Source: Mytilus californianus (lineage: Eukaryota). From it: a DNA stretch of 64,000 nt. The stretch spans positions 1,240,001 to 1,304,000 of the forward strand of contig NW_026262675.1 of assembly GCF_021869535.1 (NCBI RefSeq). The letters are read 5' to 3'. The notes below the pieces were generated by a model, which worked only from the letters and a program-made list of their open reading frames with translations, was not told the DNA's origin and ran no database searches. Each line of letters opens with the position of its first letter. The first letter of the stretch is position 1. Shown here one piece after another: positions 24,130 to 31,900 of this stretch. A program made the translations under genes and the position numbers.

Positions 24130-26900
24130 TCATGTGCTTAATAACAAATAACAATGAAATGGCTGATTGAACATGGTTTTAAGTTTTCTTGCATTGATAA
24201 AGGGCGCAGTAATCTTACTCGGTATCAGTATGTGATGTTTGGTGTGAATATTTGTGGTTTCTAACCCTAGCAGTTGTGCGTGCATATAGTGTTGAAGGGT
24301 TCAAGTTATATGCAGGTCTGTAAATTCTGTTGAAGGTGTAACGTGCCAGTATGATGGACATGCGGGCAGTGACATCAGTGGGATTGTTAAACACGTGATC
24401 CCATTTGTTATTTCTATTCAAATTTCTAAGTGCAACTAGTTAGTTTTGAAAATGATACAAATAGCTATGGATTGCATTGTATATCAAAATGTAAATGTTG
24501 GTATCCTCTGTGGTGTTTAAGTGTGTATTTACATAATGTAATGTAAGAATTAGTGACGACAGTGACAAACCATGCATTGGTGTGACCTTTTGCAATAAGA
24601 GAAATGCAGACGTACATTTTTGGACATGTCTGAACAAAACAAGACAAACTAAAGCAACCAAAGTTGATAGTCCTAGTGCAGCAATAGATACAATCCCATT
24701 AAGATCTGGCCAATCAAAGCTAACAGCTGGCAGTTCTCTATCAACCAAAAGTTTAGATCAAGATGTGAAGATAGTTTCTTTTATGAAATCTGCCTTTTTC
24801 ATGCGTTTTAGGCTAAGGTGGTATTGTATGTCTGCTTGTCTTGTGCCAAACTATTTGAGAATGTGTGATTGTAGATATGAGAGTAAGAAATATGAAAGTC
24901 AATGGGTTGCGCAAAAGTTGTGTTGCCCATGATAAAATTGTATGTGTCATGTGAAAAGAAAAATTGACTAAGAACAAGATTAATGGGAGGAAGAGTAGTG
25001 ATAGAATCAGAATGATTCTGAATTCTACCAAGTCTTGGAGGTTGATAAAGACAATCTGTAGAATTGATAACATACATGGTATGCAAACAATACAGAATGT
25101 GTAATCCTTCAGATTTTCTGATCAGAGGGACAGTCTAAAACAATTATATTAGTTCGATATACCAAAATTGAAGATGAGGATATATTGAGAATGTCTGGTT
25201 TGAGTGTATCAATGTGAAATCTAAAATCACAGATATTGTATATTTGTTCTTTCTAATTATAGAAAATAGCAAAAATTCAAGTTTGCGAGCTGTAGATGTT
25301 GAAGGAAGACGAAAAAAGTAAAATTGGATGTTTAGCCTGTTCATTTCCGTAGCTTGTGCTTGTACGAAATAATCAAATGTGTCAATAAGTTGTGTATAGA
25401 TATAAGAAGATGTGGCATGAGTGCCGATGAGACAACTCTCCATCCAAGTCAAAATTTATAAAAGTAAACCATTATAGGTCAAAGTACGGTTTTCAACACG
25501 GAGCCTTGGCTCACACCGAACAGCAAGCTATAAAGGGCCCCAAAAATTACTAGTGTAAAACCATTCAAACGGGAAAACCAACGGTCTAATCTATACAAAA
25601 AACGAGAAACGAGAAACACTTATGAACCACATTAACAAACGACAACTACTGAACATCAGATTCCTGACTTAGGACAGATGCAAACAAATGCAGCGGGTTT
25701 AAACGTTTTAATGGTACCAAACCTTCATCCTTTTTCCGAAACAATAGTGTAACAACACAAAATAGAAAGACACACTATAAAATATCAACTGAAATAGCTT
25801 AACTCAATCAAAGGACATATTAACACCAGTGAACATACACTGAACAAATAAATTTGACCTATGATACAATGTAAAATACAAAATAAATAAACTAAGGGAA
25901 GAATAATAAAAGTAACATGTAATACCGGTATGAAATGTTAAACAATTTAAGAAAAACAATATGCTCGAACAAAAATATCAGCCATTTGTAATTAGCATGT
26001 TTTGATTTGGGATTGACTGGTACTGGTTTATAGATGACTCGATACCACTGAAATGTAGATGTAGATGAAGAAACAGGAGATTTTACTAAAACATTAAGTT
26101 TGGAATAATTGCGAGCAAATACAAAAATCAGGAAATGAAGAATAATGTTGTGGATCTGTGCGTGTCAGATGAAATCCTTTGAATTTTGTATCAACATAAA
26201 AATAAGTAAATAGTTATGATTGCCAATAAGACAACTATCCACCAGAGTTCAAATGACGACAAAAAAGCAATTATAGGTCACCGTACGACTTCAACAATTA
26301 GAAAAAACAGTCTGCTATAAAAGGCCCTGACATAAACAAGTTGAAACAATTCTAACGAGAAAACTAATGGTCTAATTTATTCATTACAATTTACGAAGAA
26401 ACAAAAATACAACATACATATGTGTTTTTGGGAACAGGTGGTGAGGGAAGGAAATGTGACAACTTTCCTTTCAAAAGTTCATGAAATACAAATGCTTGTT
26501 AATAATTGCGCAAGCATTCATTTCTTGAAAAATGTAGTCTGTTAACTTAGATAGATAAGTTGATACCTTTAGACTCTTTGTTTATTTGTTTTGTGGAATT
26601 CTGAATTGCAGTAAAATTAGTTTTGACTGAATCCGTAACATTTTCAAAGCATTTGTCTGTATGTGTCGTGTATCATGTAAGTATCTCGTCATGCTTCGCC
26701 ATGGCAGCTGCAAGTTTGTTATTGTGTTTTGTTATGTCATCTGTGTGACGAGCAAGATTTCTTACGTCGTCGTTGTCGAGAGTGACAATGCCAAATAATG
26801 ATTGCGTGATTGAACCGAAAAATAGTCCTCTCTTTGTCCGACTCTTGGTCTCTAACAGTGTTGAAAATGTGACTGATGGTATCAGTGACTGCATTGTATG
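24130..26900 (-). pseudogene. env: F-type (errantivirus/baculovirus F-like) envelope gene relic, split by a ~1.25-kb repeat insertion (~25141-26400)
   Basis: KSRTKR|GLFFGSITQSLFGIVTLDNDDV (furin site + fusion peptide), heptad-like LARHTDDITKHNNKLAAAM, ELLKGKLSHFL, Cys cluster FCIVCIPC, and TM GIVSIAALGLSTLVALVCLVLF. Located directly after the integrase. Confidence 0.8.
25395..25960 (+). mobile_element. Dominant interspersed repeat, subfamily A, nested within env
   Basis: Near-identical to the 20479 copy. Confidence 0.85.
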
Positions 26901-30540: not shown

Positions 30541-31900
30541 TATGCAATTCACCACCAACTCCTACACAGGCATGTATGTTGGAGTGTTCGATGTATGTGT
30601 CTTCTATGTAAAACTGTTTTGATAATGATAAGGAACAGTAACTGATGGCTGCTCAAGTATCAACCAAGCATTTTATTCCGTGGTTTTGTATGTGTACTGT
30701 GATAGCGTTCCTATTAAGAGTACTAATTAAATGAACTGTTTGTTTTTGGTGTTTCAGTATGTAGTGATGAGTAGTTTTGCCTGTCTTGTCTACCCAACTT
30801 AATTTATCAATTGTCAAATGTTGTCTTTGTGTGTTAGGTTGTTCGCACACAGAAGCAAAGCGGCACCAAATACCACAATTATCTCATTTAAAAGCTGGTC
30901 ATTTATCTCTACAAAACTTACCAAATCCACGACATTTTTTCTGTTCAGGAGCACCATGTTGTTGATTTTCTTTTTCTTTGTTGTTTGCCCAAATGGTCAG
31001 CTTCGTTGTTCCACTGTAATCTGTCACTGGACCACTGTCTTTGTTGTTGTCTCCTTGTCTTCTATTTTGTTGAAATTGTTCTACAGCGTTTACTTCTCTC
31101 TTAATAGCAGACTTCATGGACGTCATTAGGGTGGCGCACACTTCGTTCGTATTTTGTGGTGTTGGTGTTAGTGTTTAACATTCTGTTATTGATGTTGCGA
31201 GATTAATTGCTTCTTATGGCTCTTCAAATGTTTATGGTAATTTACAAATGGTTTTTAATTTGTCAAAGCCCATTTATTGCTAAGCAAATGGTGTCATGTT
31301 CAGGCATGTCAGTGGCATTAAATGCAGACTGACATACCCTTGCAATATAATCATTCCCAATGTCATTTACATTGTGCTTGACAGTATACAGTTTGGTGAT
31401 GATGGTATGATTTGAAAATCTTAAAAAAGCCCAGGCTCCCTTTGGTGTCTGGTGAGAGTGTGTAAAGCTACAAACCTGCCTGACCAGTTTGAAAGAAATG
31501 CAAATGGTCAATTGCCTTTTGGTCTGAAAATTTTGTAGACTTTTGATATCTTTCGAAGTGTGACCATTATAAATTTGAACTCGTGTCTTCTCGTCAATAA
31601 ATTAAGACAAATCAACTTGCTGCCTAGCTGCCATTTTTTCATCCTGCAATGCTTTAGTACCTAGTTCTGTATTCTCTGTGACGTCAGGAACTTGTTCAAA
31701 ATCTTCGGGTATCACTTCCAGTTGGTATTCTATTTCTGGTAAGTTATTTGCAGTGTCTGCTTGGATTGATCTGTTTTCGGATAGTTTGAAGGTTTTGCAC
31801 CAGTAAAGATGCCTCCTTTTGACATTGGTTCCCAATGAGCCAAACAGGATCGTTTGATCTTCAAACAATTGTGAAAACGGATTTCGATATTGGGGGAGAG

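Follow-up and report, generated by a model that had tools for sequence, protein, structure and literature searches.

A decayed envelope-carrying Ty3/Gypsy element in a mussel genome, and relatives that splice an F-type envelope onto gag

The 64,000-nucleotide stretch of Mytilus californianus DNA considered here (NW_026262675.1, positions 1,240,001 to 1,304,000 of the forward strand; hereafter the window) carries on its minus strand, from about 33010 to 19631, a decayed Ty3/Gypsy element with two long terminal repeats (LTRs), gag, a pol region encoding protease, reverse transcriptase, RNase H and integrase (PR-RT-RH-INT), and an F-type envelope gene (env). The preferred reading, held at a probability of about three in four, is that the window contains a broken copy of an element whose unbroken relatives fuse their F-type env to gag by splicing and probably bud from the cell as enveloped particles by way of a predicted matrix-like tail of the envelope protein. 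The element has an LTR-gag-pol-env-LTR anatomy and is decayed; its relatives have inserted recently, join gag to env by splicing, have gag and pol in one frame parted by a lone stop, and encode a second transmembrane (TM) segment followed by a conserved tail. Its identity as an env-carrying Ty3/Gypsy element is scarcely in question.

Joining of Gag to Env by splicing

Spliced env RNA, the search for which had been proposed in a first-pass annotation of the sequence, was found for a relative at locus L038. All 111 raw reads at this locus are sense reads. In run X1 (one of four runs; the run is presumed to be RNA), a single contig lacks the 4789 nt that separate a GT donor in gag from an AG acceptor at the signal peptide of env. 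The reading frame is kept across the join, which lies 3' of the capsid domain and 5' of the zinc knuckle, and none of 15 genomic matches spans it. In another lineage, a genomic counterpart of such a transcript is provided by L062 (G000:C121, 3757-9101; listed with L070), an LTR-gag-env-LTR copy devoid of pol, with LTRs of 1875 nt that are 99.9% identical and one stop in its gag part. It differs from an unspliced sister by exactly one 5.2-kb GT..AG intron, and a spliced RNA must therefore have been reverse-transcribed.

Of 10 gag lineages, 7 have a phase-1 GT donor behind the first CxxC of gag, one has GC at this place and two have no donor; candidate phase-1 acceptors lie 5' of the signal peptide at 4 of 6 and at 9 of 12 env loci. 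Both the window and its sister L005 retain the donor, which in the window reads G/GTAAGT (30916-30922, minus strand, phase 1) just 3' of the degenerate first CxxC, the same site as that used in the L038 RNA. Gene models with the same join account for 15 of 174 proteins, from Mytilus, Pecten, Argopecten, Mizuhopecten, Pinctada, Haliotis and Lingula, although these are annotation and some may derive from the G000 genome. When the Gag-Env junction region was used as query, six proteins came back, and raw contigs yielded no fused frame. The 1050-aa Logan protein P0224 was considered as a Gag fusion and rejected, its extra length lying at the C-terminus. Taken together, the splice may be regarded as highly secure, and splicing of env from within gag has been described in the idefix subclade (PMC12992720). 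At L059 and L068 an ATG stands directly after the acceptor and the gag donor is absent, and this lineage thus likely expresses env without the Gag part.

The stop codon between gag and pol

At all 16 whole gag-pol junctions (20 places fetched), gag and pol share a frame interrupted by one stop. In 14 of the 16 this stop is accompanied by an 8-nt spacer and a stem, and in the other two by the context TGA-C with no structure. Among nine distinct stems (duplicates and the two stemless junctions excluded), 95% of cells pair in a structure drawn on these same sequences, both partners have changed in six of nine pairs, and slid controls stay at or below 46%. The sister L005 keeps a TAG, the 8-nt spacer and the whole stem; by comparison with it, the window preserves only the 3' arm (30788-30797, minus strand), the remaining signal being lost. 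In the lineage of L040 and L042 the stop is TGA with a C after it, and the stem is absent; this readthrough context is unlike that of all other lineages. Programmed readthrough of the gag-pol stop is very probable. Other Ty3/Gypsy elements are known to use stop readthrough (10.1101/2022.12.06.519325); a literature search on the trait, with most subscription papers and Repbase outside it, found no paper with a title on molluscs.

The envelope protein and its tail

The first-pass annotation had seen, in a third frame behind pol, an RTKR furin site, a heptad region, a cysteine cluster and a TM anchor, and had taken the element for an env-carrying Gypsy with an F-type fusogen. Every one of these motifs is present when the minus strand is read in three frames: the furin site RTKR with the fusion peptide GLFFGSITQSLFG at 26840-26770, the heptad region and, downstream of it, the cysteine cluster at 25276-25040, then a TM segment at about 24694-24632. 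The window's own env fragments do not match the Pfam F family (16 window fragments were searched, with RNase H the sole scorer), and the F assignment accordingly rests on relatives. A window env fragment is 37-39% identical to the natural env P0001, which matches Pfam Baculo_F at 1e-18 (one of four natural env proteins tested) and whose predicted model (63 sequences, pLDDT 77) matches the F protein of respiratory syncytial virus in the PDB at 5e-10. Natural env, compared by sequence with solved structures, gave nothing, the best E being 0.19. That the element family encodes an F-type class I fusogen can hardly be doubted.

Env does not end at its TM anchor: a tail domain lies beyond it in the window (24435-24118). 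In natural relatives a second TM segment and a conserved tail follow the first TM segment (TM1), and the tail domain has 111 matches in genome G000. Matrix proteins of four virus families make up six of the seven top rows for the predicted tail fold, a result with which a different program, run on another library, agrees. In the fold search, jingchuvirus glycoproteins occupy ranks 1-8 for the tail and also match the whole env; these larger proteins (Aliusviridae and Myriaviridae, with taxonomy checked for three; 730-1235 aa) match, as whole entries, at 10-16% identity. The tail alone yielded no homologue of similar length and no Atlas match. On the predicted fold, homology of the tail to mononegavirus matrix appears somewhat favoured. 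A matrix-like tail is surprising and unproven; it would account for the way in which such elements come by their membrane. The literature found for a matrix protein within a retrotransposon env was all unrelated, and that found for matrix and class I fusion in jingchuviruses did not bear on the point, most subscription papers and Repbase again being outside the search.

A proposed route to enveloped particles and competing explanations

The proposed scheme begins with a full-length RNA that would yield Gag together with some Gag-Pol, the latter by leaky readthrough of the stop aided by the stem-loop. The polyprotein encoded by the spliced RNA would begin with the Gag capsid, short of its zinc knuckle; an internal signal peptide would lead into the F ectodomain and TM1, and another internal signal peptide, with a brief luminal stub behind it, into the second TM segment and the cytosolic tail. 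Cuts by signal peptidase would release a membrane-tethered capsid, the F0 precursor, to be cut later by furin, and a membrane-anchored matrix-like protein; this division into three products is slightly favoured. If the tethered capsid co-assembles with free Gag and the matrix-like protein lines the membrane, budding cores would carry F and would pass to adjacent cells, which by analogy with Drosophila would most likely be germ cells.

For the F-plus-tail cassette, a negative-strand RNA virus akin to the jingchuviruses is the most likely origin. A more tentative extension, short of even odds, is that mollusc errantiviruses took a whole budding kit of tethered capsid, F and anchored matrix, expressed as a spliced polyprotein, from such a virus, in which case the F-plus-matrix polyprotein would represent an unrecognised source of matrix in jingchuviruses, and its F part would be found in mollusc herpesviruses too.

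Compatible with the preferred reading, and possible if somewhat doubtful, is an exchange of env with mollusc herpesviruses through the malacoherpesvirus ORF68 family, the element being either donor or recipient. Compared with viral models, that of P0001 has as its first match an 801-aa abalone herpesvirus protein (3.5e-27, 18% identity), followed by jingchuvirus-type glycoproteins at ranks 2-10, with baculovirus F lower. The top two Atlas clusters for env are mostly Peploviricota (0.96 and 0.95), and a scallop homologue carries the name 'transmembrane protein ORF68', ORF68 being tabulated as an envelope fusion protein (PMC6353905). However, the abalone herpesvirus protein is absent from the top 50 fold matches of the tail, a domain that jingchuvirus glycoproteins do match, along with the whole env; identity to the herpesvirus protein is low, and without a tree no direction of exchange follows. 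A search of viral contigs with the env alignment gave 203 pattern matches, of which none was confirmed, and this left no herpesvirus or jingchuvirus sequence to align. None of 10 distant env homologues could be given a name. One homologue, P0054, is filed under a bacterial metagenome-assembled genome (Sedimenticola sp.) and is probably host DNA in a symbiont bin.

Less likely still is an ordinary 'ancient' errantivirus whose tail is a lineage-specific beta domain, matrix-like only through a common arrangement, and whose Gag part is a long leader to be discarded. The agreement of two programs and two libraries on matrix proteins speaks against this, as do the placement of the donor after the entire capsid domain, with the same motif in distant molluscs, and the spliced copy that integrated complete with the start of gag.

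The first-pass annotation had itself proposed a once-infectious, horizontally transmissible lineage; in the form weighed here, this lineage moved between hosts and had taken its env from a baculovirus-like donor. Intact F-type env, young insertions and the Baculo_F match are in keeping with this. Since the herpesvirus and jingchuvirus proteins rank above it, baculovirus F is not the nearest viral match. By the names of its nearest database proteins, the host is a Mytilus mussel. Among open-frame env proteins, those nearest to the window come from Mytilus coruscus records and have 59-61% identity over the window's pieces, and in a quick env tree (33 rows picked for having names or loci, with long branches for three decayed copies) the window falls with these records in an all-Mytilus clade, beside scallop and oyster/pearl-oyster clades. 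Grouping by host family has supports of 99-100 by the Shimodaira-Hasegawa-like approximate likelihood ratio test, which fits descent with the host and lends no support to horizontal spread. The errantivirus survey of Chary and Hayashi (eLife 2026; PMC13524379) argues mainly for vertical descent and against a baculovirus source, and horizontal movement between hosts with an env of such origin is improbable. The lineage may have been infectious; the observations that bear on this are open frames, young LTRs and sense transcripts in relatives.

Relatives in the genome

The subfamily of the window has three decayed copies in G000, the window included, the two others at about 75% nucleotide identity, and no unbroken copy of this subfamily is found there. 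Intact relatives, the existence of which had been anticipated, do occur more widely: 8 of 25 env matches in G000 lie within open frames of 770-834 aa. The linkage of env to Gypsy pol likewise recurs in other copies, with a long Pol frame preceding env at 7 of 8 places fetched and LTR pairs 98.4-100% identical at 7 of these 8. At a further 12 places, pol pieces precede env in 11, the twelfth being the spliced copy. The env family comprises 1620 clusters at E 1e-30. Pfam Chromo scores above or near its cut-off in three of three natural Pol proteins and as a remnant in L005 (0.0012), and the domain is deleted in the window. At L048 (1678-2508) and L049, an LTR, an open env frame and a second LTR, 100% identical to the first, are present with no gag or pol frame; this env-only copy seems to have moved recently.

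Anatomy and decay of the window copy

Gag, Pol and Env of natural relatives align collinearly with the window from 31763 to 24136 (tblastn, summed E down to 1e-128). The domain order PR-RT-RH-INT is that expected of Ty3/Gypsy (Metaviridae), and the Pfam types RT_RNaseH, Integrase_H2C2, Ty3_capsid and Chromo in natural relatives point the same way. The element does occupy the interval 24130-31900 first assigned to it, and its LTRs reach beyond that interval, to about 33010 and 19631. The 5' LTR (31870-33010) contains a 559-bp inverted-repeat element (31896-32454) near its 3' end, and the 3' LTR (19631-20187) is bounded by TG...CA, the ends of both having been judged by eye. The two are 70% identical over 568 columns (blastn, with no other match) and score 451 in local alignment against at most 69 across 30 shuffles. 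They differ at 165 of 685 aligned columns (Kimura two-parameter distance 0.29), in an alignment that extends into the flanks. Homologues of the LTR sequence lie upstream of gag in sister L006 and downstream of env in sister L008. Neither a target-site duplication nor a polypurine tract is recognisable at the window element, and the primer site is decayed.

All coding remnants are on the minus strand. The gag remnant (30821-31763; E 4e-10 with the natural L036 Gag, tblastn) includes the capsid and remnants of CxxC and the zinc knuckle. The protease region (29700-30778) is broken by a stop in the protease motif (30653-30655) and an insertion at about 29960-30536, and the frameshifted reverse transcriptase (28622-29330; pieces 46-58% identical to L036 Pol) by a stop at YxDD (28819-28821), both stops bearing out the earlier description of a dead copy. 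RNase H and the bridge region follow at 27851-28586 (RT_RNaseH_2 1.2e-18, RT_RNaseH 3.5e-14), and then the integrase (26989-27830), with frameshifts and internal deletions.

The order gag-pol then env is as first described, and env follows pol directly only through a loss of sequence. About 0.9 kb kept in sister L005, with the chromodomain remnant, splice acceptor, signal peptide and ectodomain start, is missing at 26974. This deletion cost the window its chromodomain (Pfam Chromo 5e-8 in relatives), env splice acceptor and signal peptide, and is the reason that env adjoins the integrase. The first env piece (26421-26974; 37-39% to natural env, E 1e-21; 55% to P0009) bears the F2 end, the furin site (26840-26829), the fusion peptide and the heptad region. 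High-copy repeats are nested in env at 26194-26421 and at 25395-25993, the latter with further copies at 20475-21050 and 39640-39990. Next come the Cys-rich domain and membrane-proximal stalk (24760-25395; summed E 4e-61 to L051 env), then TM1, a basic patch, a signal-peptide-like stretch and a loop rich in Ser and Thr (24440-24760), where the second TM segment is mostly lost. The tail domain (24118-24435) contains three stops and is 38% identical to the L051 tail (E 3.7e-21) and 71% to P0009. Between env and the 3' LTR lies a 3.7-kb insertion (20304-23993) with 36-nt terminal inverted repeats, where sister L008 is uninterrupted (3066/3065); it has internal short direct repeats and no long frame. 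Five insertions are thus recognised in the element, at 31896-32454, 29960-30536, 26194-26421, 25395-25993 and 20304-23993.

The window env has 12 stops over its seven pieces. RNA reads of run X24 map only to two nested repeats, the element copy being otherwise without reads, and the DNA-like run X15 covers 30 of 30 bins of the locus. Runs X21-X23, which had few shared words, were set aside. This copy is old, dead and silent. The abutment of env on the integrase across a deletion, and its interruption by repeats, might suggest an unrelated insertion or assembly artefact, an idea refuted by the same order in two sisters and many relatives and by the independent DNA-like coverage.

Neighbouring sequence

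Several features were recognised by eye in the remainder of the window. Kunitz-like Cys motifs followed by long Gly/Met-rich repeats, shell-matrix- or byssal-like in appearance, occur at 1510-2901 and 11373-12716 (minus strand), and a LINE-like C-terminal fragment at 16067-16819 (minus strand). Upstream of the 5' LTR are O-methyltransferase-like exons (35846-36199 and 37408-37734, plus strand). A calmodulin-like EF-hand exon (48542-48868, minus strand) and 21-nt tandem arrays (53887-54241 and 55936-56226) lie farther on.

Comparison with known systems

The element is not new as a kind, as PMC13524379 catalogues 36 bivalve errantiviruses, five of them from a Mytilus species; all 30 bivalve rows examined of the 36 are assigned ENV_F. 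The 'ancient' F-type errantiviruses described there share with the mussel family a Ty3/Gypsy pol, a chromodomain in relatives (a chromodomain clade is reported in molluscs, annelids and cnidarians), an F-type env that has a furin site and a fusion peptide, few copies and near-identical LTRs. The group described there is typified by a 'mini' domain that comes after RNase H, within the bridge region. They differ in that the ectodomains treated are those of intact copies, whereas the window subfamily is decayed in G000. The main text of that paper does not contain the terms readthrough, frameshift, splic, cytoplasmic or malacoherpes, though its figure supplements may show such traits. The Gag-Env splice, the predicted matrix-like tail and the gag-pol stop are what is new beyond the catalogued kind, and these family traits matter more than the window copy, a fossil of that kind.

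The env of the insect errantiviruses gypsy, ZAM and idefix is described with one TM segment and a cytoplasmic tail; the mussel relatives are unlike them in their second TM segment, folded tail, donor after the whole capsid domain and in-frame gag-pol stop. Insect errantiviruses use gag-pol frameshifting. Host and chromodomain together argue against placement in the genus Errantivirus, the insect clade in the ICTV taxonomy. Fission yeast Tj1/Tosmo, Candida Tca2 and murine leukaemia virus likewise have one in-frame gag-pol stop (10.1101/2022.12.06.519325). The signal of the mussel family is a simple GCC..GGC stem with covariation. In murine leukaemia virus the layout is a stop, 8 nt and a structure. 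Steamer and Steamer-like elements are also LTR retrotransposons of bivalves, and Steamer is not known to carry env. MchSLE-1 has a single 1376-aa gag-pol frame, and no env appears in its figure legend (PMC10974842).

How Ty3/Gypsy elements that carry an env are transmitted outside Drosophila, and whence their env came, are posed as open questions in PMC13524379. A matrix-like env domain with a capsid-envelope fusion would offer a concrete, testable route from intracellular core to enveloped particle, and would favour an origin in negative-strand RNA viruses over one in baculoviruses. The nearest viral match of the ectodomain is an envelope protein of mollusc herpesviruses, pathogens in aquaculture whose entry protein is poorly known. 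The matrix of mononegaviruses is free and soluble, whereas the matrix-like domain of the mussel family would be anchored by a TM segment. The nearest working analogy for the proposed Gag-signal product comes from foamy viruses, where the leader peptide of Env persists as an N-terminal membrane product of type II orientation and recruits capsids (PMC7828637); that leader is encoded by Env and cut by furin, whereas the N-terminal part in the mussel family is Gag itself.
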